From an uncultured bacterium (lineage in GTDB: Bacteria; Bacillota; Clostridia; Christensenellales; HGM11417): a stretch of DNA of 64,000 nucleotides. Made by a program: the position numbers and the translations under genes. The notes beneath the pieces were generated by a model, which was not told where the DNA came from, searched no databases, and saw nothing but the letters and a program-made list of their open reading frames with translations. This document shows positions 32,758 through 60,653 of this stretch, piece by piece. The stretch is from assembly GCA_905215695.1 (NCBI GenBank), contig CAJMQN010000002.1:134610-198609 (forward strand), given 5' to 3'. How positions within the stretch are numbered: position 1 is the stretch's first letter; each line of letters starts with the position of its first letter.

Positions 32758-34809
32758 CTATCCTCTTTTCTTTTTCACCCGAAGCGCGCGCAACGCATTT
32801 AGAATTGCGAGGAAGGAAACGCCCACGTCCGCGAACACCGCGAGCCACATGGACGCAAACCCGAGCGCGCCCAGCACAAGAATGACAGCCTTTACGCCGA
32901 GCGCAAACACGATATTCTCCTTGACGATGCGCATGGTCCGGCGGCTTTGCCGGATTCCCTTTGCAAGTTTGGAAGGCTCGTCGGTCATCAATACGACGTC
33001 CGCAACCTCGATTGCCGCGTCGCTCCCCATGCCGCCCATCGCGATTCCGACGTCCGCGCGCGCAATGACGGGCGCGTCGTTGATGCCGTCTCCCGCAAAG
33101 AGGAGTTTGCCCTTTTCGCTCTTTTCCGCAAGCAGGGCTTCCACCCGCGCCACCTTGTCCTGCGGGAGCAGTCCCGCATAGACCTCGTTGATTCCGAGCG
33201 TCCGTCCGACCGCCTCTGCGACCTCGGGCGCATCTCCGGTCAGCATAACCGTCTTTTTGACTCCCGCCACGCGCAGTTCGGCAACTGCCTCCCGGCTGTC
33301 CGGCTTGATTTCGTCCGCAATGAGAATACTTCCGAGGAATTTTCCGCCCCGCGCGACATACACCGCCGTTCCGGGTTCTGCGCAGGCGGAAAAGGCAATT
33401 TTCTCCCGCTCGAGCAGTTTCGCGTTGCCGCAGAGCACCCGCTCGCCCTCGAATATCGCGGAGATTCCGTATCCCGAAAGCTCCTGCGCGTCCGAGACGT
33501 CCGAAAGGGGTGCGACACCCGACGCTTTCACAATTGATTTTGCGATGGGGTGATTGGAAACGCTCTCCGCCGCCGCCGCGACACGGAGTAGTTCGGCTTC
33601 CTCCGTGCCCGGTGCGGGAGAAACTTTCGCCACGGCAAAGTTGCCCTTTGTGAGCGTGCCGGTCTTATCGAACACGACAATCTCCGCCCGCGCAAGTTCC
33701 TCGACGTTGTGGCTCCCTTTAATGAGCACGCCCATGCGGGACGCGCCGCCGATACCGCCGAAAAAGGAGAGGGGCACAGATATAACAAGCGCGCAGGGAC
33801 AGGAGATGACGAGGAAGGTCAGCGCGCGGTATCCCCATTCCGCAAAGTGCGAAAACCCGACAAAGAGACAGGGTACTACCGCCAAGAGCACCGCGCCCGC
33901 CACCACGGCGGGGGTATAGTATTTGGCGAATTTTGTGATAAAGTTCTCTGAACGGGACTTTTTGGCGGAGGCGTTCTCCACCATATCGAGAATTTTCGCA
34001 ACCGTCGATTCGGCAAAGACGCGGGTCACGCGGATTTCCACCGTACCCGAGAGATTGATGCTGCCCGAGAGCACCTCCTCCCCTTGCGCGAGTTCACGGG
34101 GCAGGGATTCCCCTGTCAGCGCGGAATGATCGACTGTCGTATGCCCGGAGACGAGTACGCCGTCGAGGGGCACCCGCTCCCCCGCCTTGACAAGAATGAT
34201 TTCGCCGGGCGCAACCTCTTCGGGACTCACCCGCACCGCGCCGCCCTCCCGCAGGACGTTGGCAAAGTCCGGGCGCAGGTCGAGAAGGCTCTTGATGTTC
34301 TTTCTCGACCGCTCGACCGCCATGTCCTGAAAGAGTTCGCCGATTCGGTAAAATAACATGACGCCCACCGCCTCGGGGAAGTCGCCGATCGCAAACGCGC
34401 CGACCGAGGCGACCGCCATGAGAAAGTTCTCGTCGAAAATCTTTCCGTGCCCGATAGACCGCGCGGAATTCCAGAGAATTTCCGCGCCGATAACGAGGTA
34501 CGCCGCAAGACAGAGCCAGAGTTTGGCATTGTTCGCCGCAAACACCCGCTCCTCCCCGAAGAAGAAGGACAGCGCAAGCAAAACCGCCGAGAGAGCAATC
34601 TGCGCGTAAATCAGCCGGAATTTTCCGATTTTCAAATCGGCGTGTTCGTGGTTGTCACAGTGTCCACAACCGCAGGCGTGCCTGTGCCCGCACTCCTCGT
34701 GCCCGTGTTCATGCTCGTGTTCGTGGCAATGCGCATGCCCGTGACAGGATTCATGTTCCCGTTCTTTTTCCTGTTGCCCGCAACCGCAGGCGATATGTTT
34801 GTTTTCCAT
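32758..34809 (-). CDS. Heavy-metal-translocating P1B-type ATPase (Cd/Zn/Co-type, CadA/ZntA-like) with His/Cys-rich N-terminus
   Basis: CPC transmembrane motif (ISCPCALVISVP), DKTGTLT and GDGINDAP. N-terminus HESCHGHAHCHEHEHEHGHEECGHRHACGCGHCDNHEH. Confidence 0.9.
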   Translation of the reverse strand: MENKHIACGCGQQEKEREHESCHGHAHCHEHEHEHGHEECGHRHACGCGHCDNHEHADLKIGKFRLIYAQIALSAVLLALSFFFGEERVFAANNAKLWLCLAAYLVIGAEILWNSARSIGHGKIFDENFLMAVASVGAFAIGDFPEAVGVMLFYRIGELFQDMAVERSRKNIKSLLDLRPDFANVLREGGAVRVSPEEVAPGEIILVKAGERVPLDGVLVSGHTTVDHSALTGESLPRELAQGEEVLSGSINLSGTVEIRVTRVFAESTVAKILDMVENASAKKSRSENFITKFAKYYTPAVVAGAVLLAVVPCLFVGFSHFAEWGYRALTFLVISCPCALVISVPLSFFGGIGGASRMGVLIKGSHNVEELARAEIVVFDKTGTLTKGNFAVAKVSPAPGTEEAELLRVAAAAESVSNHPIAKSIVKASGVAPLSDVSDAQELSGYGISAIFEGERVLCGNAKLLEREKIAFSACAEPGTAVYVARGGKFLGSILIADEIKPDSREAVAELRVAGVKKTVMLTGDAPEVAEAVGRTLGINEVYAGLLPQDKVARVEALLAEKSEKGKLLFAGDGINDAPVIARADVGIAMGGMGSDAAIEVADVVLMTDEPSKLAKGIRQSRRTMRIVKENIVFALGVKAVILVLGALGFASMWLAVFADVGVSFLAILNALRALRVKKKRG

Positions 34810-51930: not shown

Positions 51931-52809
51931 TTAACCTTTGAGCCCGCCTGCGACGGTATTCGCGATAATCGTCTTTTGGAAGACCGCGAAGATGACGATG
52001 ACGGGGACCGAAGAGAGCACCATCGCCGAAAAGACGACAGGCCAGTTGGAGCCTCGGGAGCTCATCTCCTGCTGTAACTGATAGATTCCGACCGCAAGCG
52101 TCGGGAATTCGCGCAGATACATGTAGGGCGTAAAGTAATCGTTCCAGAACCCGATAAAGCTGATGATTCCCACCGCGAACAGCGAAGGCTTCGCCTGCGG
52201 GAGCATAATCCGTACGAAAATCTGAAAGTTTCCCGCGCCGTCAATTTGCGCCGCCTCCGCATAGGTCCAGGATAGACTTTTAAAGAACCCGTACAGCAGA
52301 AAGAAGTTAAATCCGAACCCGCCCGAATACATGAGAACAATGCCGAGATGGTTGTTCGCAAGTCCGCTCTCGAACATAAATTTGTACTGCGCCGCAAGGG
52401 AGCCGGATGTCGGAATCAGCATAATCGTGATAGCGAGTCCGTAGATAAAATTCCTGCCCTTAAAATCGAATTTGGAAACCACGTAGGCGGACATCGCGCA
52501 GGCGATTGTCGAACCCGCCGTGCCCCCGACGGCAAGGATGAATGAGTTTAAAAACATCGAGAAGAGGTTGTACTCGCTGAACGCTTTTGCGTAATTGTCC
52601 AGCGTCCATTTCCCGAAGTTAAACCAGTCCATTGGGTATTTTGCAAAGTCGAGCCTCGTGCGGAAGGAATTGATTGCCGCCCACAGCAGAGGGAAGACGA
52701 GAGAGATGCCGTAGAGGATAAAGACAATCAGGACAATGATCATCGTGACCTTGGGCAGAGAACATTTGTCCTCGCTCGCCTTCCGCGCTCTTTGTGCGTG
52801 AAATGCCAT
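51931..52809 (-). CDS. Carbohydrate ABC transporter permease (MalG/LplC-like)
   Basis: Six TM segments and EAA loop EAAQIDGAGNFQIFVRIMLPQAKP. The start ATG shares one nt with the upstream stop (TAATG). Confidence 0.88.
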   Translation of the reverse strand: MAFHAQRARKASEDKCSLPKVTMIIVLIVFILYGISLVFPLLWAAINSFRTRLDFAKYPMDWFNFGKWTLDNYAKAFSEYNLFSMFLNSFILAVGGTAGSTIACAMSAYVVSKFDFKGRNFIYGLAITIMLIPTSGSLAAQYKFMFESGLANNHLGIVLMYSGGFGFNFFLLYGFFKSLSWTYAEAAQIDGAGNFQIFVRIMLPQAKPSLFAVGIISFIGFWNDYFTPYMYLREFPTLAVGIYQLQQEMSSRGSNWPVVFSAMVLSSVPVIVIFAVFQKTIIANTVAGGLKG

Positions 52810-55800
52810 TATTTGATCCTTTTTCTCGTATAGAAGAGTCCGAATGCGGCAAGTGCAATCACCGCAAGTCCGCCGCCCAGCATTCCGCCGATGCCGCCCG
52901 TCGAGCCGCAGCCTCCGCAGCCGCCCTTTTCGGGTTCTTCGGGTTTGTTGGGATCATCGGGCTCCTCGGGCTCTTCGGGGTCCGGCGGAACAACGTCGTC
53001 GGGAATTTCCGAATAGTCCGAGAGGTTGACGAACACAAAGCGGTCCAGCGCAATTCCGCCAGAAACCGTCGCGACACCCACCCGTCCGGGTACGGCGCAA
53101 TCCACGTCGAATTCCGCAACAGGTTCATTGAGTACGTCATAGGGAAGGTCTCCGTACATGAGCGCGATTTGGAGCTTTCCGCCCATCACCGTCGTCTGTA
53201 CGACAAAGGAGCCCTCTCCGATCGCCGCAAAGACATCAACGCCGAGTTCAATGGTACGTTCCTCTGCACCGTCTTTGACTGTCGCCTTCGTGGAACCCTT
53301 CGTAAATGTCACCGTGCAGGCATCCGCAAGCGTATCCTCGGAATCCAGCCGTCCGAAGTACAGCGAAATATCCGTACACGTTTCGGAAATTGAGGTAATC
53401 CGCACCATCTGCGCGTAGTTGCGCGCCCAGCCTGCGGTTCCGAACATTCCGTTCGCACCGAGCGTAAGTTTTCCGTCCGCAACGGTGCCCGCAACGCTCT
53501 CGAATTTGTCCGAGCCGTCGAATGCCGCCGAAGCGTCAGCCATCTGCGGAAGATCGATGACGCGGAAGGTCTTTTGCGCGGTCGCGGTCAAGTCGTGTGT
53601 GTTCTTGACCGAAAATTTCACCGTATAGAAACCCGTCGCAGTCGGTGTAAAGGTCAGTCCCTCGGAGTGAAGAGGCGTACCCGTCGCCTCCTTTCCCGCG
53701 AAGACCTCCATTGTAATCGTGAGCGAGTCCGCGTCGTCGAGCGGGTCATCCGCTTCGGGCGCAAACGTAATCGGATTCAGACCGTTGTACCAGTCTTTCG
53801 TGTCCCCGACGGTGAGCGTGGGCGCGCCGTAAATAACTTCGAAGTCGAAGGGCACGTTTGCGGTCTGTCCCGCGGGATTGGAAACGGTAAAGAGGAAATG
53901 ATAGTTTCCGATTTCCGTCGGTTTAAATTCCGCAATATTCGGTACCGCATAGGGCTCCCCGTCCTTGGTCACGGTATAGTTGAAAGTTTTCACGATTTCC
54001 GCAACGCTGAAACTCGGGTCGGAGAGTGTAGGCATGAGATTGAAGGTCTCCCCGAGACTCCCCTGTGTCATTTCAGGCACCGTCACCGTGGGCGCCGCAG
54101 CGGGATTGGATTTCAACGAGAGGTAGTTAAGTCTCGCGGAAATTGTCTCCCCCTCTCCGAAGAACCCAACAAAGCCGTCGGTATTCTCGAGCGTAAAGAT
54201 TTCGGTTTTTCCTCCGACCGATACCTCGAGCGCACCCGTGGCGCCGATGAGCCGGAAGGTTACGAGCGTGGGATTGGTCAAATCAAGCCCCGCGATTGCA
54301 CGCTCGTCGGGTTCTTCCTCGCCCTTGCGCAGTCCGAGAACCGCGCCGTTCGTGTCCCGTTTCAAATAGAGATAGCTGCTGTTCTCGCCGAAAGCATAGT
54401 TCGTACCAAGCCCGAACGCCGCGCCGAACGAGCCGGAGTTCAGCTTGAAATTGAACGCGCCGCTCACGACGTCCGTGTCGAGGTTTTCGAGCTTTGTTTT
54501 GACGCCGAGCGTCCCTTCGCCGGAGAACGAAACCTCCGAAACCGCCGGAAGGGTCAGGGTCGTCGAGGAAGAAGCGGTCCAGAGCGCAAGCCCGTTGCCG
54601 TTGATATTGTTGTAGGAGAAATCATCCGAGAGCAGGACTCCCTCCGCCGAAGTGGAGACCTGTGCCGAATGTAGCGTTGTTCCTCCGCCCCAAGTATTAT
54701 GAGGAACTGAAATAAAGAATCGTCCGCCGTCACGCACCATATCCGCAAACAATCCCGTTTCGGTAAAGAGGACGTAATCTTTTTCGGTACTGAGTCCGCT
54801 CTCTCCGCCCATCGTTATTTGCTCAAGGATTCGCAGGGAAAGCGTTGCGGAACCGTCCGCGGAAACGTCCAGAATAAACTTCACTTTTCCGTCGAAGATA
54901 CGCAAATTTCCGGACGCGTAAAATTTAGACTCGTCTTCCTTCAGAATTTCGTCCCATCTGCCGTCAACCTTCACATTGCTTCCCGCGTTGCCGTCCTTTG
55001 TCACGCTGTAGCCGTTGAAGTTCAGGGAAATATAGTCCGTAGGCGCGGTCTCGTTCGCTCCGACAAATCCCACTGCGGTCGTCGGTCCTCTCGAAGTCAC
55101 GACATACTCGACATGCGTCGCGCCTTTGAAGGACTGTGTGCTGACAAGCATATTGTTTCCATTCACCGACGTACCGCCGCTCGCGACCCCCTTGTCGTTG
55201 GGCAAGGATTCAACAAAGGAAACCGCGCCTGCGCTCGGCTTTGAAGCAGTTCCCTCGGCGACAGCAGTGTCAAAGGCGTCGTTTGTAACCCAGTTGGTAT
55301 CAAAAGTGGAAGGGGTTGCAAAGTTTTCAGTATAGTTTTCAAAGACCGAAATCGGGGGTTGCGATGAAATGCTCGCACGGAGCAATTTAAAATTGCTTGA
55401 CGCAAAGAAGGGATAACCGACTTCTTTCAATGCACTTGGATTATCCACATTGGCAAAGGACAAAAACGGATAGCTTGTATCAATGTTTTTATACATTTCG
55501 AGCCAACTGTCGCGTTCGAACTTACTGTCCATTACCGTATTAGAGGCAGGAATTTTTACGGAAAGCGTCACGTTACCGTAGGCGGAAATCTCAAGTTTCA
55601 GCGAAACTTCCCCCTTCAAAGGCGCAATGTCCGTTGTTGCGTCATGATTCCAAGCTCCTTTTACCATGGAGGTCGGCTTTTGTGCACTGCCGTCATTATA
55701 ATAGAAGATATAGTTAGATGCTGCATCCGCAATTTCCGACTTGACATTTTTGCGGCTCAATCCTATTTTGAATTGATAGGTTTCCTGTACAAATTCCACG

Positions 55801-56063
55801 TCAAAAGTGAGAGTGGACTGCAAACCTGTTTCTCCACCGACAGGTTTATTTAAGAGGAACAGTGCGTCTGTGACAGAGGATGCGTCAGCATAAGCCTGTA
55901 CCGGCGTCGTGCTCTCCACCTCGGAGGCGTGGAACCCGCCTCCCGCAACATAGGTTTTGGCGGAGCTGCCCGTCCCGGTCTCCGCAAACGCCGCCCCGGC
56001 AAAACCGCAGAGGCTGATTACCATGACACAAAGAATGGCGAAAATCGCTCTTTTTCTTTTCAT
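52809..56063 (-). CDS. Large secreted, C-terminally anchored multi-module protein (lectin/LamG-like beta-sandwich and Ig-like modules), 1084 aa
   Basis: Signal peptide MKRKRAIFAILCVMVISLCGFAGAAFA. Recurrent beta-sandwich signatures (GFVGFFGEGETISARLNYLSLKS; GRVGVATVSGGIALDRFVFVNLSD). Two Ig-like repeats (EFKPTEIGNYHFLFTVSN / TFTPTATGFYTVKFSVKN). No catalytic motif recognised. Confidence 0.6.
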   Translation of the reverse strand: MKRKRAIFAILCVMVISLCGFAGAAFAETGTGSSAKTYVAGGGFHASEVESTTPVQAYADASSVTDALFLLNKPVGGETGLQSTLTFDVEFVQETYQFKIGLSRKNVKSEIADAASNYIFYYNDGSAQKPTSMVKGAWNHDATTDIAPLKGEVSLKLEISAYGNVTLSVKIPASNTVMDSKFERDSWLEMYKNIDTSYPFLSFANVDNPSALKEVGYPFFASSNFKLLRASISSQPPISVFENYTENFATPSTFDTNWVTNDAFDTAVAEGTASKPSAGAVSFVESLPNDKGVASGGTSVNGNNMLVSTQSFKGATHVEYVVTSRGPTTAVGFVGANETAPTDYISLNFNGYSVTKDGNAGSNVKVDGRWDEILKEDESKFYASGNLRIFDGKVKFILDVSADGSATLSLRILEQITMGGESGLSTEKDYVLFTETGLFADMVRDGGRFFISVPHNTWGGGTTLHSAQVSTSAEGVLLSDDFSYNNINGNGLALWTASSSTTLTLPAVSEVSFSGEGTLGVKTKLENLDTDVVSGAFNFKLNSGSFGAAFGLGTNYAFGENSSYLYLKRDTNGAVLGLRKGEEEPDERAIAGLDLTNPTLVTFRLIGATGALEVSVGGKTEIFTLENTDGFVGFFGEGETISARLNYLSLKSNPAAAPTVTVPEMTQGSLGETFNLMPTLSDPSFSVAEIVKTFNYTVTKDGEPYAVPNIAEFKPTEIGNYHFLFTVSNPAGQTANVPFDFEVIYGAPTLTVGDTKDWYNGLNPITFAPEADDPLDDADSLTITMEVFAGKEATGTPLHSEGLTFTPTATGFYTVKFSVKNTHDLTATAQKTFRVIDLPQMADASAAFDGSDKFESVAGTVADGKLTLGANGMFGTAGWARNYAQMVRITSISETCTDISLYFGRLDSEDTLADACTVTFTKGSTKATVKDGAEERTIELGVDVFAAIGEGSFVVQTTVMGGKLQIALMYGDLPYDVLNEPVAEFDVDCAVPGRVGVATVSGGIALDRFVFVNLSDYSEIPDDVVPPDPEEPEEPDDPNKPEEPEKGGCGGCGSTGGIGGMLGGGLAVIALAAFGLFYTRKRIK
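52812..52988 (-). other. C-terminal tripartite tail of the 1084-aa protein: KPEEPEK-G-GCGGCG, Gly-rich spacer, TM helix, RKRIK
   Basis: PPDPEEPEEPDDPNKPEEPEKGGCGGCGSTGGIGGMLGGGLAVIALAAFGLFYTRKRIK. Confidence 0.6.
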
Positions 56064-56075
56064 CTTTTCTCTCCC

Positions 56076-58085
56076 TTAAGCGTAATTTTCGAAAGACAGC
56101 GGCGTGATACTTAAGTTGTCGATGTCAAAAGTGCTGTTGTATCCGCAGCTGATTCCCACGTAGCCGTAGGTGTTCACATTTGTGAAAACGGCTTTGGGTT
56201 GGTCGAGATAGCTTGCGTCTTGATTCGAATATTTATAGTAAATCGAAATCGTGCGGTTCTTGACGATGACGACGACGTTGACTTTCAAACCGTCGGTTCC
56301 GGTCACAACCTTGCCGTCGCTTCCGTCATGCCACCAGCACTCCGAGGGCCACTCCGCCTCTCCTCCGCTTGCGGTCGTCGCGCCGTATCCCCATATAATC
56401 ATGCTCGGTGTAATCTTCCCTTCCGTATTCTTGTTCCAATATTTGGTGCAGAACTGTACCGAAGGATGTGTTCCGCCGATACTGCTCTCGTCATAATTCT
56501 GTTTTCCGACCGAAATACCGATGCTCATGTCCGCGTAATAGCCGGGTGTGGCATACAGCCCGTCCTCGTCCCGGTAAAAACTTCCCACAATGCGCGTCAC
56601 GTCAAAGCGCAGAATAAAGTCCTGATATTTTTCCTTTGTATTGAAGGAAGTATTGACATCGCCGGAAGAGAATTTTAAAACCCCGTTCCGAACGCTACAG
56701 TTGCCTTCGGCGACCCACTTTTTGGAATCCACGTAGCCCGCCGTCGTCGAACCGTTTTTCATCGCGTCGAAATTGTTTCCGATTGCGCCCGCCGTCGGTC
56801 TTTGGAAGGTATAGAGCGTCAGTTCCGCCGAATACAGGAACGCGCTCACCGAACCGGTCGCAGTCTCCTCCAATTTTTCGGCGGCGAATCCGAGATAGCC
56901 GGACAGAGCCGCATTTCGCGCCGTTCCCGCGAGAACGCCGTCCACATAGACCTGCAAATCGCTGTTATACCTGCCGATGAGCCGCACGACCGCGCCGTCA
57001 GAAACGGAAAGCCCTTCCTTCACGATCGCCGCGTCCTCTCCCTCGCGCGCAATCACGAGGTCAAATCCCTCTTCCGCAGGGGTAAACGCGAGAAAATCTC
57101 CGCCCGCGCCGCTGCCGTCCATGCCGGTGCGCACTCCGAATCCATAGCCCTCGGGAATATTCGAAAGCCCGACGCCGAAGGAGAAATCAAAGAGATTGAG
57201 ACTACCCTGTCCCTCCTGCACCTCAAACTTCGCCGCCATGACCGCAGAGGAAATCTCCGCAAACTTTGCGGCATATCCCATACCCGAAGAATACTGTTCA
57301 TTCTGCGCGATCCAGGGCAGAATGCGCTCATCGGTCATGCCGATCAGTTCCTCTGTGGGTTTTTCGAACTTTTCGGTCGCAACGACTTTGTCCGCCGCCG
57401 TATCTCGAATGGAAAGATTCATAAACTTGACCGTCGAACCGTCGCCGTTCGCCTGAATGCAGAGATGACCTGCCACGCCAAACACCGAGAGATCGCAGAC
57501 CTTTTCGAGCGTTTCGCCTGCGTAAATCGCGCCCTTATATTCCTCGTTCTCATAGGTCACGGAAATCTTGAAGGGCATCGCGACTCCATTCGAAACAAGT
57601 CCCGGGACGTTTCCCGTCTCGCCGTCGATGATCTGACCGAGGCGGTAGTTGTTGACCCAACCCTTTTGTCCGTTGGCGCTGATGATGATTCCGCTTTGGC
57701 TGCGCTTTGCATAAGTCGAACCGACTTCTTCGCCGCCGAGAATGATGCCGCACCACGCCTCGCCCGAGGTCTTCATCGAAACCTCGAAGCTGATATCATA
57801 GCTCTTTCCCGCCTCGAATGTAAAACCGTTGTGATAAATGGAATGACTATAGCCCTGCACGGGTTTCATTACCAGCGCGCCCGAAGTTTCAACAGCATTC
57901 ACCTTCTGCGCGTCCGCGCCTGCGAGCAGCCACTTTGACGAATCGATGGTGCTTCCGCTGAAGTCGTCGGCGAGCGCAACCGTCGCCACACTGCCGGCAT
58001 TCGCCGCGCCGAGGGGCAGCGCGCAAGCCGCGATGAGCAGGGCAAGCCCGACAGCCGTCGCAATCCTTGCAAATTTTCTCTTCAT
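56076..58085 (-). CDS. Secreted (possibly lipoprotein) protein built of concanavalin-A-like/LamG (DUF1080-type) modules, 669 aa
   Basis: The start is ATG 58085, with GGAGAGGAAGG upstream. Signal peptide MKRKFARIATAVGLALLIAACALPLGAANA (IAAC lipobox-like). Module signatures are DDFSGSTIDSSKWLL...STVKFMNLSIRD and VRNGVLKFSS...YVGISCGYNSTFDIDNLSITPL. Confidence 0.55.
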   Translation of the reverse strand: MKRKFARIATAVGLALLIAACALPLGAANAGSVATVALADDFSGSTIDSSKWLLAGADAQKVNAVETSGALVMKPVQGYSHSIYHNGFTFEAGKSYDISFEVSMKTSGEAWCGIILGGEEVGSTYAKRSQSGIIISANGQKGWVNNYRLGQIIDGETGNVPGLVSNGVAMPFKISVTYENEEYKGAIYAGETLEKVCDLSVFGVAGHLCIQANGDGSTVKFMNLSIRDTAADKVVATEKFEKPTEELIGMTDERILPWIAQNEQYSSGMGYAAKFAEISSAVMAAKFEVQEGQGSLNLFDFSFGVGLSNIPEGYGFGVRTGMDGSGAGGDFLAFTPAEEGFDLVIAREGEDAAIVKEGLSVSDGAVVRLIGRYNSDLQVYVDGVLAGTARNAALSGYLGFAAEKLEETATGSVSAFLYSAELTLYTFQRPTAGAIGNNFDAMKNGSTTAGYVDSKKWVAEGNCSVRNGVLKFSSGDVNTSFNTKEKYQDFILRFDVTRIVGSFYRDEDGLYATPGYYADMSIGISVGKQNYDESSIGGTHPSVQFCTKYWNKNTEGKITPSMIIWGYGATTASGGEAEWPSECWWHDGSDGKVVTGTDGLKVNVVVIVKNRTISIYYKYSNQDASYLDQPKAVFTNVNTYGYVGISCGYNSTFDIDNLSITPLSFENYA

Positions 58086-58110
58086 ACCTTCCTCTCCTTC
58101 CTTTTTTATT

Positions 58111-59043
58111 TTAAAATTCAATATCCGGTGTGACCTTTCCCATCAGCCATTTGACGAAGAACACGAAGGGAATGCCGACCACCGAGAACATGAGCCCGAG
58201 AGCGGCGGCTTTTTCTCCCTCCTCCTGATTCACAAGCTGATAGATGTACAGTGCGACCGTCGAAGTCTTTCCGTTTGCGCCCCCGCTGTCCGAGATGATA
58301 AGCATGGGCGGCAAAAACCAGCCGAAGATTGCCAAAGAATTTAAGATAAACAGCGTGGACATGGTCGGCCATACAAGGGGCAGAACAATCTGAAACATCT
58401 CCCTCACGGTCGTCACGCCGTCCAGCCTGCTGTACTCGAGAATCTCCTGCGGAATGCGGGAAATGCCTCCGTTTAGCAGCACCACATTGTACCCGAGTCC
58501 GGACCACACCGCGAAGAAAAACACAGTCGGCATCGCCCAGCTCCCGTTGCTGTCCAAAAAGAATGGCGTCTTTTCCCCGAAAATGAGCTCGCAGAGCTTG
58601 TAAAAAAGACCGTAATCGGAGTTAAACATGGAGCGGTACGCGAGTGCGAGCACGGTAATCGAGATGATCGAGGGCAGAAAGAACACCACCCGGAAGAGGT
58701 TCGCGCAGGGAATCTTCTTGAACAGAAAGAACGCGCAGACAAAGGACAGCGGCAGAATGATAAAGTTATTGACCGGGAAGATCCACAGCGAGTTGAGCAT
58801 AGAGTTGAAGGTGCGTTCGTTGTGTCCGAGGAACATGTCCCCGAAGAGTTCCCAGAAGTTATTGAGTCCGTACCAGACGTACTCCTGCGTGTTGGGGCTG
58901 TATCGAAAGAAAGTCATGAAGATGGTATTCGCGTTGATGTACAGCCAAAACACGAGGAAGTGCGCGATCGGGTATGCCAGCATGAGCCATACAAAGACCG
59001 TGGTCTTCCGCTTCCCCGAACGAAGCCGTTTTGTCTTTTCCAT
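58111..59043 (-). CDS. Carbohydrate ABC transporter permease (MalF/LplB-like), 310 aa
   Basis: EAA loop LEYSRLDGVTTVREMFQIVLP and six TM segments. The start ATG 59043 forms an ATGA overlap with the SBP stop. The track start 59067 is rejected. Confidence 0.88.
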   Translation of the reverse strand: MEKTKRLRSGKRKTTVFVWLMLAYPIAHFLVFWLYINANTIFMTFFRYSPNTQEYVWYGLNNFWELFGDMFLGHNERTFNSMLNSLWIFPVNNFIILPLSFVCAFFLFKKIPCANLFRVVFFLPSIISITVLALAYRSMFNSDYGLFYKLCELIFGEKTPFFLDSNGSWAMPTVFFFAVWSGLGYNVVLLNGGISRIPQEILEYSRLDGVTTVREMFQIVLPLVWPTMSTLFILNSLAIFGWFLPPMLIISDSGGANGKTSTVALYIYQLVNQEEGEKAAALGLMFSVVGIPFVFFVKWLMGKVTPDIEF

Positions 59044-60653
59044 CAGACCTCGGCGAGCTCCTTCCACTTATCGAAGTTATCCATCGCATTGTTATAGACG
59101 GTTGTCACGAGCTCGTTTGCGGTCTTTCCGTAGAGTTGAAGAAGGATATCCGCCTCGTTGTTCTCCGCCCATTCCTTGATGCCCGCGTACATAAAGATGT
59201 TGCTTGTTGAGCTACGCACAATCTGCAGAGCGTCCGGGTTCTCATAGACCGAGAAAACGCTCTTCGTGAAGTCCGTGAGTCCCTCCGCCTCGCTCGGGCT
59301 GTAGTCAAAGGGACGTGCGATAGACATGGATTCGGTCGCCTTCATGACGTTTTCCTGTTTGTTGAGGTAGATAAGGAACTTTTTGGCGTTCTCCTTGTGT
59401 ACCGCATTCTCGGGGATAAACATGAGGTCGCCGATCTCGGTATTGTTGACGACGGCGTATTCGGGAGACTGCGTTGACGCGGTCTCAAACCCTCCGTCCT
59501 TCAAGAGTCCGCCGTGAATCTCTTTGGATTCGAGTCCGAGCTTGGACGCAACCGAGGAGACATAGGCATAATCGACCGCCGGCACGGGCATCATTGCGTA
59601 GTGGAAATTCTCGTCGATCAGTTCGTCGATTTCGTTCTGAATCCAGGAACCATTGGGCATCATCGCCGCTTCCCCGAACGCGAACTTTTCCTGTGCCTCA
59701 TAGACGGTCTTTGAGACCGGGTCCTTGATGCTGTTCGTCCAAGTGCTGTTCGCCTCATCGACGATGAGGTCGCGAAGAACCTGAAGCGCAATCTTGCGCC
59801 CCGCCTGATTAAAGGATTCGTATCCGCTGTCCGGATTTCCGGCGTTGTCCACAAAGTTGTAAAAATCCTTCAGGTCGCCGTATTTTGCCACGCCGTCCTC
59901 GAAAGATTCGTCATAGCCTTGATAGGAGCACCACAGACTCATAAAGAGGAAGTTCCAATACCCCATATTCGTGCCGTCGCCGCCCCAGGCAAAAGCGGTC
60001 TTTCCCGCAGCTTTCAGGTCCGCGACGAGCTCGAGAAGCTCGGTGACGGTCTTGGGCGTATAGCCGTCCGCCCACTTGCCGCCGAGACTCTTGAGCATAT
60101 CCACGTTATAGACGATTCCGGTGAGCGGCGAAGTCCAGGGCACCACCCAATAGTGCTTATCGGCACTGCTCGGGGTCTGTCCCATGTATCCGAACTGCGC
60201 GGCTTCGTCGATCAGCTTATCGGAAAGCGTTTTGTCGTCTTCATCCTCATAGACATACGAATAGACGTCGTCGATTTCGGAGATATAGCCCTTGTTGACG
60301 TAGCCCTGCCACTTGAGGGTCTGCGTCATCACGACGTCGGGAAGTTTATTGAGAATGGTCGCGCTCGGCTTTCCATTCGAGGGATGCGCATTCTTCAAGA
60401 GCGTGGGAATCTCGCTCGTGACGCTGTTGTCAGACTCGAGATAGACGCCGATGCCCGTCTCTTGCACGAAATTGTGCGTAATCTCGTACAGCCATTCGGC
60501 GCCGTTGCCTCCCTCGAAATAGCGGACATACAGATCGCCCTCGTCCCGCTCGAAGAGGTAATCGTAGTCGGAATTTGTCTTTCCCCGGCCGCAGCCGGCA
60601 AAACCGAACACGAGAACAAGCGCAAGTACTGCCGTCAACACACGTTTCATCAT
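59043..60653 (-). CDS. Large extracellular solute-binding lipoprotein of a CUT1-type sugar ABC transporter (LplA-like), 536 aa
   Basis: Lipobox MMKRVLTAVLALVLVFGFAGC. AAGGAG RBS 8 nt upstream. The size and composition are typical of polysaccharide-oligomer SBPs. Confidence 0.85.
   Translation of the reverse strand: MMKRVLTAVLALVLVFGFAGCGRGKTNSDYDYLFERDEGDLYVRYFEGGNGAEWLYEITHNFVQETGIGVYLESDNSVTSEIPTLLKNAHPSNGKPSATILNKLPDVVMTQTLKWQGYVNKGYISEIDDVYSYVYEDEDDKTLSDKLIDEAAQFGYMGQTPSSADKHYWVVPWTSPLTGIVYNVDMLKSLGGKWADGYTPKTVTELLELVADLKAAGKTAFAWGGDGTNMGYWNFLFMSLWCSYQGYDESFEDGVAKYGDLKDFYNFVDNAGNPDSGYESFNQAGRKIALQVLRDLIVDEANSTWTNSIKDPVSKTVYEAQEKFAFGEAAMMPNGSWIQNEIDELIDENFHYAMMPVPAVDYAYVSSVASKLGLESKEIHGGLLKDGGFETASTQSPEYAVVNNTEIGDLMFIPENAVHKENAKKFLIYLNKQENVMKATESMSIARPFDYSPSEAEGLTDFTKSVFSVYENPDALQIVRSSTSNIFMYAGIKEWAENNEADILLQLYGKTANELVTTVYNNAMDNFDKWKELAEV

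Follow-up and report, generated by a model that had tools for sequence, protein, structure and literature searches.

The window analysed here, 64,000 nucleotides from an uncultured bacterium (assembly GCA_905215695.1, contig CAJMQN010000002.1, positions 134,610 to 198,609), lies on a 529-kb contig in an ENA metagenome assembly and carries two genes for exported proteins, A and B, whose bodies are unrelated and whose C-termini are built alike. We found that both tails represent a single, homologous C-terminal module. Each follows the layout KPEEPEK-x-GCG, a Gly-rich spacer, a hydrophobic helix of 18-19 residues and a basic end (RRRRV in A, RKRIK in B), and both proteins start with an N-terminal signal peptide. 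A tripartite tail common to A and B had been put forward in a preliminary description of the window, and translation of the two genes confirmed it. The features are listed below in window coordinates; those of the tails were read from the translation.

18-7115, minus strand: protein A, 2365 amino acids, with signal peptide, S8 subtilase domain with PA insert, Fn3_5, nine BspA-type leucine-rich repeat (LRR_5) stretches and the C-terminal tail (Pfam, gene call)
129-149, minus strand: tail of A, KPEEPEK, end of the acidic stalk, giving the Lys at -3 from the Cys (21-mer common to A and B)
117-125, minus strand: tail of A, G-C-G signature, Cys codon at 120-122
90-116, minus strand: tail of A, spacer AVAGDASGG
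36-89, minus strand: tail of A, hydrophobic helix FGGMMLLLVLAAGGVYIA, 18 amino acids, without charged residue or Pro
21-35, minus strand: tail of A, basic cluster RRRRV, then the stop codon (18-20)
52809-56063, minus strand: protein B, 1084 amino acids, with signal peptide, a mostly beta-strand body without known domain and the A-like tail
52947-52988, minus strand: tail of B, Pro/Glu/Asp stalk PPDPEEPEEPDDPN
52926-52946, minus strand: tail of B, KPEEPEK, encoded by 21 nucleotides identical to those of A (common 21-mer)
52905-52922, minus strand: tail of B, G-C-G-G-C-G, doubled signature with two Cys
52884-52904, minus strand: tail of B, spacer STGGIGG, which with the next Met reads GGIGGM
52827-52883, minus strand: tail of B, hydrophobic helix MLGGGLAVIALAAFGLFYT, 19 amino acids
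52812-52826, minus strand: tail of B, basic cluster RKRIK, then the stop codon (52809-52811)

The called gene of A encodes 2365 amino acids; the raw open reading frame (ORF), which starts at an upstream TTG, encodes 2388. A ends in GSGDDNEKPEEPEKTGCGAVAGDASGGFGGMMLLLVLAAGGVYIARRRRV directly before its stop codon (longer reading: NEKPEEPEKTGCGAVAGDASGGFGGMMLLLVLAAGGVYIARRRRV), and B likewise in PPDPEEPEEPDDPNKPEEPEKGGCGGCGSTGGIGGMLGGGLAVIALAAFGLFYTRKRIK (longer reading: PNKPEEPEKGGCGGCGSTGGIGGMLGGGLAVIALAAFGLFYTRKRIK). The helix of A reaches a mean hydropathy of 2.08 over a 17-residue window. A scan of all ORFs of at least 120 amino acids in the window and its flanks found a C-terminal hydrophobic stretch followed by a basic cluster only in A and B. 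The peptidase region of A resembles that of the LPXTG-anchored SGO_0316/0317 family, and A is likely a cell-envelope proteinase. B had no match in Pfam or NCBIfam, and its single-sequence AlphaFold model was unusable (mean predicted local distance difference test score 36), placing a helix at residues 1065-1077 with low confidence; the label 'lectin-like' that had been given to B could not be verified.

The 21-mer CTTTTCGGGTTCTTCGGGTTT that encodes KPEEPEK is present in the window only at 129-149 and 52926-52946, as had been reported, and the identity between the two genes runs on as the 32-nucleotide pattern AAACCCGAAGAACCCGAAAAG-NNN-GGCTGCGG. With up to three mismatches allowed, this pattern matched twice in the window and not once in 100 shuffles. 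Given the codon usage of the window, the probability that two independent encodings of KPEEPEK use identical codons is about 0.007, as calculated in a post hoc test. Because of the 32-nucleotide match and this codon identity, the tails look homologous and not convergent. The tail is also the sole recognisable stretch that A and B have in common, since BLASTP detected no significant similarity between the two bodies, in agreement with the earlier statement that these are unrelated. Gly-rich and Pro/Glu-rich sequences are common, and ends consisting of a helix and basic residues are generic, which would speak for a chance resemblance of two low-complexity tails. This explanation is effectively ruled out by the shuffles and the codon probability, and by a degenerate 29-nucleotide DNA pattern for PEEPEKxGCG that was scanned against 596 Gb of genomes and against metagenome contigs: only three matches were obtained in the genomes, and one of these, from a Clostridia genome, encodes in frame a tail built like those of A and B.

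The presence of further tail carriers in relatives was a check set beforehand, and such carriers were found. The PEEPEKxGCG scan yielded three more in-frame tails of the A/B layout, with one true tail and two chance matches on genome contigs and two true tails and three chance matches on metagenome contigs. One of these proteins (L006, uncultured Clostridia bacterium, rabbit gut) ends in PEQPEEPEKKGCGGSVGIAFGGITALVSLAAVALVRKKRTK, the second (L011, metagenome contig) ends in PPEEPEKAGCGGTLSGGALVLSVSALAAALVCTLQKKRGGRRG, and the third (L009, human-gut metagenome contig) is a copy of B from the same species. The L006 protein, whose body lies beyond the locus read, may be a B-type orthologue; downstream of its gene lie a GH2 gene and two ATP-binding cassette (ABC) permease genes (98-8000). 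As the DNA pattern gave so few matches, PEEPEK is a local variant and not the signature of the family. A word-indexed protein search with an alignment of the two tails or with the last 133 amino acids of A gave nothing useful, such short low-complexity queries missing even A and B themselves. A profile search with the tail alignment in 1.84 billion representatives returned only B, since a profile of 54 positions is too short to become significant against so many sequences.

Searching with the entire sequence of A found 4475 homologues, of which the best 120, A included, were analysed; these are proteins of 2230-2580 amino acids with the domains of A. We found a helix and a basic cluster at the C-terminus in 107 of these 120 proteins and LPXTG in none. 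A juxtamembrane Cys is present in A and 22 others, always as [K/G/S/T]-G-C-[G/S/K/N/R/A] and 8-17 residues before the helix. The sole other linker Cys among the listed homologues is that of P0080, located 30 residues upstream and in a different context.

The alignment of 26 tails with this Gly-Cys (GC) motif, including those of A and B, shows which positions are conserved. Gly at -1 and the Cys itself are invariant; a G or S follows at +1 in 22 tails, and each of the 26 has G, S, A or C at +2. At -3, Lys occurs more often than any other residue (12 tails); at -2 it ranks second (7 tails). From this alignment the signature is K-x-G-C-[G/S]-[G/S] and not KPEEPEK, as had first been proposed; PEEPEK is a local form of the acidic stalk. 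Six tails (A, B, L006, P0009, P0013 and P0118) share GCG-x(6-12)-[G/A/T][F/I]GG[I/L/M] at the helix start, which in A is the GGFGGM formed by the spacer and the first helix residues. The module as a whole comprises an acidic or low-complexity stalk, the signature, a Gly/Ser-rich spacer of 6-15 residues that often ends in GG[F/I]GG[M/L], a charge-free helix of 17-20 residues, 3-5 Arg/Lys and the stop codon. Unrelated exported proteins of one genome carry this conserved signature at a fixed position, which is the general mark of a tripartite sorting signal.

Regarding known signals of this kind, isolated tails were scored against NCBIfam release 20, and full-length proteins were scored as well. 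The tail had been described as uncharacterised, and this stands insofar as no curated model explains it cleanly: it is a real, homologous and currently unmodelled C-terminal module. Its design, on the other hand, is the 'GC, transmembrane helix, RRR' of MYXO-CTERM. On TIGR03901 (MYXO-CTERM, curated cutoff 20 bits) the isolated tails of A (24.7-25.1 bits), B (21.4 bits) and P0069 (23.4 bits) score above the cutoff, and these were the only ones to do so among the 12 of the 26 family tails whose scores were inspected. P0069 also passes TIGR03382, 'GC_trans_RRR'. At an expectation value (E) ≤1, six of the 26 family tails match TIGR03901 and three match TIGR03382.

The published description of MYXO-CTERM (Haft preprint) is of a domain at the C-terminus in which the Cys is invariant, commonly within GCGC, and is followed by a helix lacking charge and Pro and then by an Arg cluster; 3-73 carrier proteins per genome have been reported. 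The tails of A and B agree with them in lying at the extreme C-terminus, both ending at the stop codon, and in having the invariant Cys after Gly, often doubled (GCG in A, GCGGCG in B). They further agree in the spacer of about 8-17 residues, the helix without charge or Pro, the Arg-rich end, the disordered stalk before the signature, and the carriage of the tail by unrelated surface proteins of one genome. Unlike MYXO-CTERM, tails of the A/B type have a Lys 2-3 residues before the Cys and the GG[F/I]GG sub-motif. The myxosortase MrtX, a member of the CPBP family, cleaves MYXO-CTERM in a Cys-dependent manner, and in the published working model an Lgt-like enzyme lipidates the Cys beforehand (PMC11980579). 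No myxosortase was found in the loci sampled here. These loci, about 240 kb altogether, comprise about 84 kb of this genome and six further regions around GC-tail orthologues; they were surveyed through the recorded Pfam matches of the called genes.

The hosts differ as well. MYXO-CTERM belongs to Myxococcota with an outer membrane and type II secretion. The window carries an rpoB-rpoC-L7Ae-rpsL-rpsG-fusA-tuf cluster of the Bacillota type together with a Mur ligase and Ddl, and its solute-binding proteins and many of their neighbours are N-terminal lipoproteins reading ...[A/G]-C-G-G. On account of these genes we infer a single-membrane, wall-bearing host, and this gut bacterium looks like a member of the Bacillota and not a myxobacterium; the named homologues of A are labelled Clostridiales, Roseburia or Anaeroplasma. 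A true MYXO-CTERM signal with its myxosortase, acquired from Myxococcota for instance by horizontal transfer, would account for the three isolated tails above the TIGR03901 cutoff and for the good fit of GCG or GCGGCG, the charge- and Pro-free helix and the Arg cluster to the published description. It is nevertheless very improbable: full-length scores fall under the cutoff, few of the family tails match the model, and the host has neither a second membrane nor a type II secretion context. The published curation moreover limits true MYXO-CTERM to Myxococcota and Bradymonadales and judges matches elsewhere to be false positives (Haft preprint). Since the tail falls outside the taxonomic range and the envelope type of MYXO-CTERM, it is not classed as a member. 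That it is a variant of the Cys-containing kind of tripartite sorting signal, with MYXO-CTERM as its nearest known relative, we consider an even bet.

The other models explain the tail less well. On GVDTG_CTERM (NF058571, cutoff 29 bits) A reaches 25.6-25.9 bits, with profile positions 8-44 alone aligned and the signature positions left uncovered; B does not match, and three of the 26 tails do. JDVT-CTERM, Synerg-CTERM and the archaeal CGP-CTERM have an invariant Cys, a helix and a basic cluster in common with the tails of A and B. JDVT-CTERM differs by its DP motif, by usually having one target per strain and by an adjacent enzyme gene; with its model (NF033191) the tails score 11.6-13.5 bits against a cutoff of 27 bits, and neither a DP motif nor an adjacent CPBP gene is present. 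In Synerg-CTERM and CGP-CTERM the motif adjoins the helix with no spacer. CGP-CTERM is the sole known example without an outer membrane and shows that such signals exist there. The tails of A and B gave no match at E ≤10 to Firmicu-CTERM, GlyGly-CTERM, Synerg-CTERM or CGP-CTERM, and PEP-CTERM, with 12.6-13 bits against a cutoff of 16 bits, matched the helix only. Cys-containing C-terminal signals have so far been described in myxobacteria, some proteobacteria, Synergistota and Thermococcales. In the literature we found no Cys-type C-terminal signal and no C-terminal lipobox for Clostridia or Bacillota beyond the myxosortase papers.

A sortase-like transpeptidase could also read the tail as a cell-wall signal, with K-x-G-C-G in place of LPXTG. 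The SGO_0316/0317 family, to whose peptidase region that of A is similar, consists like A of giant S8, PA and Fn3 proteinases located beside a peptide importer and ending in a tripartite tail with a spacer. Lactococcal PrtP is another Gram-positive cell-envelope proteinase anchored by LPXTG. A spacer between motif and helix, as in our tails, is typical of LPXTG signals, and the helix and basic region of the tails produce weak matches to the LPXTG model TIGR01167 (12.3-15.8 bits, cutoff 15.9) and to the NPXTG model NF033846 (11.2-14.4 bits, cutoff 23.5). All of these scores lie below the cutoffs, however; an LPXTG-like or NPXTG-like motif is present in none of the 26 tails, which have G-C-G as signature, and no sortase gene was seen in the sampled loci. 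The absence of the motif led us to reject an LPXTG signal, and recognition of K-x-G-C-G by a sortase is hardly credible.

The genes for A and B lie next to genes for nutrient uptake. The neighbourhood of A is kept in seven genomes (window 18-7115 with L003 17118-27098; L015, L016, L017, L018, L019, L021), in the order giant S8, PA and LRR_5 protease, one to three N-terminal lipoproteins with LRR_5/Flg_new, and an Opp-type peptide ABC transporter (SBP_bac_5/OppBCDF). The lipoprotein and transporter genes are located downstream of the protease gene, and upstream in one genome. This locus looks like a cell-envelope proteinase and oligopeptide-uptake system of gut Clostridia. The gene for B sits within the gene set of a sugar ABC transporter, between its two permease genes. 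The order on the minus strand (51931-60653) is solute-binding protein, permease, a 669-amino-acid protein, B and a second permease, whose gene starts right at the stop codon of B. The 669-amino-acid protein has a weak 3keto-disac_hyd (DUF1080-like) match and shows no similarity to B.

Sec translocation stops at a C-terminal helix that is followed by Arg/Lys, and the protein is thereby anchored with its body outside the cell. The tails strongly suggest that A and B are membrane-anchored in this way; lipidation of the Cys and cleavage of the tail are suggested by analogy only. By the same analogy the two proteins may belong to one dedicated processing pathway in which the Cys would be the site of cleavage or lipidation. 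Such a pathway would begin with Sec export of A and B through the N-terminal signal peptide, after which the C-terminal helix and the basic cluster would arrest translocation and retain the protein at the external side of the cytoplasmic membrane, the single membrane of the cell. By analogy with MYXO-CTERM, the juxtamembrane Cys would then be S-lipidated, most obviously by an Lgt-like transferase, and an intramembrane protease of the CPBP/Rce1 type may remove the helix and leave a C-terminal lipid anchor. Lgt is a plausible modifier because the G-C-G-G core corresponds to the residues around the lipidated Cys of the N-terminal lipoproteins of this genome ([A/G]-C-G-G in the lipoproteins, G-C-G-[G/A] in the tails). 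The topology is mirrored, though, with the Cys placed before the helix and 8-17 residues away from it, and the tails lack the Leu at -3. A membrane-proximal site would fit the cargo, as A adjoins an oligopeptide ABC importer and B lies within a sugar ABC importer operon.

We put forward, as a tentative reading that falls somewhat short of an even chance, that Clostridia-type Bacillota of the gut possess Cys-dependent C-terminal lipid anchoring. Such anchoring would have no precedent among single-membrane bacteria and would not rely on type II secretion. S-lipidation of the tail, possibly through Lgt working on a mirrored lipobox, would be followed by clipping of the helix by an intramembrane protease, and giant proteinases and nutrient-binding proteins would thereby be tethered beside ABC importers in abundant, uncultured bacteria of the human gut. 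The serious rival is a plain C-terminal transmembrane anchor, that is, permanent stop-transfer with an uncleaved tail and no sorting role for G-C-G. We regard it as a real contender, though it too stays below even odds. The G-C-G would then be a lineage-specific juxtamembrane element, which might for instance respond to redox state or metals, be lipidated occasionally or have been inherited neutrally with a shuffled tail cassette. What makes this rival serious is that no enzyme was found in the sampled loci, that most listed homologues have helices without Cys and that the Cys varies among close orthologues.

Several results weigh against lipid anchoring, and some of them favour the plain anchor. 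The recorded Pfam matches of the called genes in the window contain no sortase, exosortase, rhomboid or CPBP family, which bears out the preliminary description on this point, and none of them (CPBP as PF02517) is recorded in the remainder of the roughly 240 kb sampled. Most family tails match no Cys-CTERM model, and most fail all curated sorting-signal models; on TIGR03901, when entire proteins are scored in the manner of an annotation pipeline, A reaches only 14.8 bits and B gives no match. All bacterial Cys-CTERM systems described so far come from species with two membranes and operate in conjunction with type II secretion, which does not apply to the present host. In the 84 kb of this genome that were examined there are two carriers. 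A Cys-less C-terminal helix with a basic tail is used by 82 of the 120 listed homologues of A, some of them with long cytoplasmic extensions. These plain stop-transfer anchors of most A orthologues have the same helix and basic cluster at the extreme C-terminus as the tails of A and B and differ from them in lacking K-x-G-C-G, in some cases also by a long acidic cytoplasmic extension or by aromatic interface residues. P0048 and P0050 have the GC motif, whereas their close relative P0025 keeps the helix and the ...KKKxGGNADA end without it, which indicates that at least some lineages can anchor the protein without the Cys. In a similarity tree of the peptidase region another GC-tail protein was the nearest neighbour for only 13 of the 23 GC-tail proteins. 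The cytoplasmic tail of GC forms is always short (≤13 residues), but the difference in length from non-GC forms is not significant (p = 0.12).

Other findings speak against the plain anchor. Among the 23 juxtamembrane Cys, 22 stand in one G-C-[G/S]-type context and within narrow limits of distance from the helix, in linkers that otherwise cannot be aligned, and A and B, unrelated as they are, have both the motif and the GG[F/I]GG sub-motif in common. In strict anaerobes, moreover, a conserved Cys exposed on low-complexity linkers outside the cytoplasm would be hard to explain if it were unmodified.

If the Cys is modified, Cys-containing C-terminal sorting signals would extend to single-membrane Bacillota of the human gut. 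For signals of this class, MYXO-CTERM included, the lipidation step has yet to be identified, and a system without outer membrane or type II secretion would offer a simpler setting in which to find it. Current curated models miss most of the GC tails; with a model built for them, the mode of anchoring would be annotated for many very large, unnamed surface proteins in gut metagenomes, such as proteinases, proteins associated with sugar uptake and LRR adhesin-like proteins. If the helix is only an anchor, the result would be more ordinary and still useful, since a large family of A-type proteases would then be membrane-anchored rather than wall-anchored.

Besides its tail, A carries a non-canonical lipobox-like ...NTGC within its signal peptide MKYKKIACLLISAILLCNTGCAEI (window 7046-7115). 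A lenient N-terminal lipobox pattern was also matched in 6 of the 23 GC-tail homologues (P0009, P0012, P0013, P0021, P0106, P0118), and judging from these sequences some members of the A family may be tethered at both ends. Other clades of the family (P0019, P0026, P0028, P0032, P0040, P0060 and others) have different, clade-specific helix tails, such as ...GKHWF(F) and ...KKRWFI, ...FPHWATALISV...KAVRKGGKEQ, or helices with long acidic cytoplasmic tails ending in ...EDDHE or ...DSDEK. Anchor types at the C-terminus appear to turn over quickly in the A family.

Directly upstream of the GC-tail orthologue P0008 lies a gene for a 261-amino-acid multi-pass membrane protein with a HEGAH motif and a weak Peptidase_M50B match (L018 8680-9465). 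As a candidate processing enzyme it is not supported, being seen in this one locus only. Two genes are split in one assembly and intact in another: an LRR lipoprotein gene downstream of A (635 + 456 amino acids in the ENA contig, L003 17118-20337; intact with 1074 amino acids in a Logan assembly of the same species, L004 11718-14942) and a GntR-type regulator gene (315 + 43 amino acids versus an intact 363; L001 16715-17807 versus L002 16715-17806). Both are frameshifts or assembly differences. The ABC locus of B is followed by genes for two lipoproteins without known domains (430 and 424 amino acids), a GntR regulator, a GH42 enzyme and a rhamnosidase. Elsewhere in the window (32758-34809, minus strand), after the gene for an HTH_5 (ArsR-type) regulator, there is a gene for a P-type ATPase with a His/Cys-rich N-terminal stretch (...HACGCGHCDNHEH...), which is probably a heavy-metal exporter.

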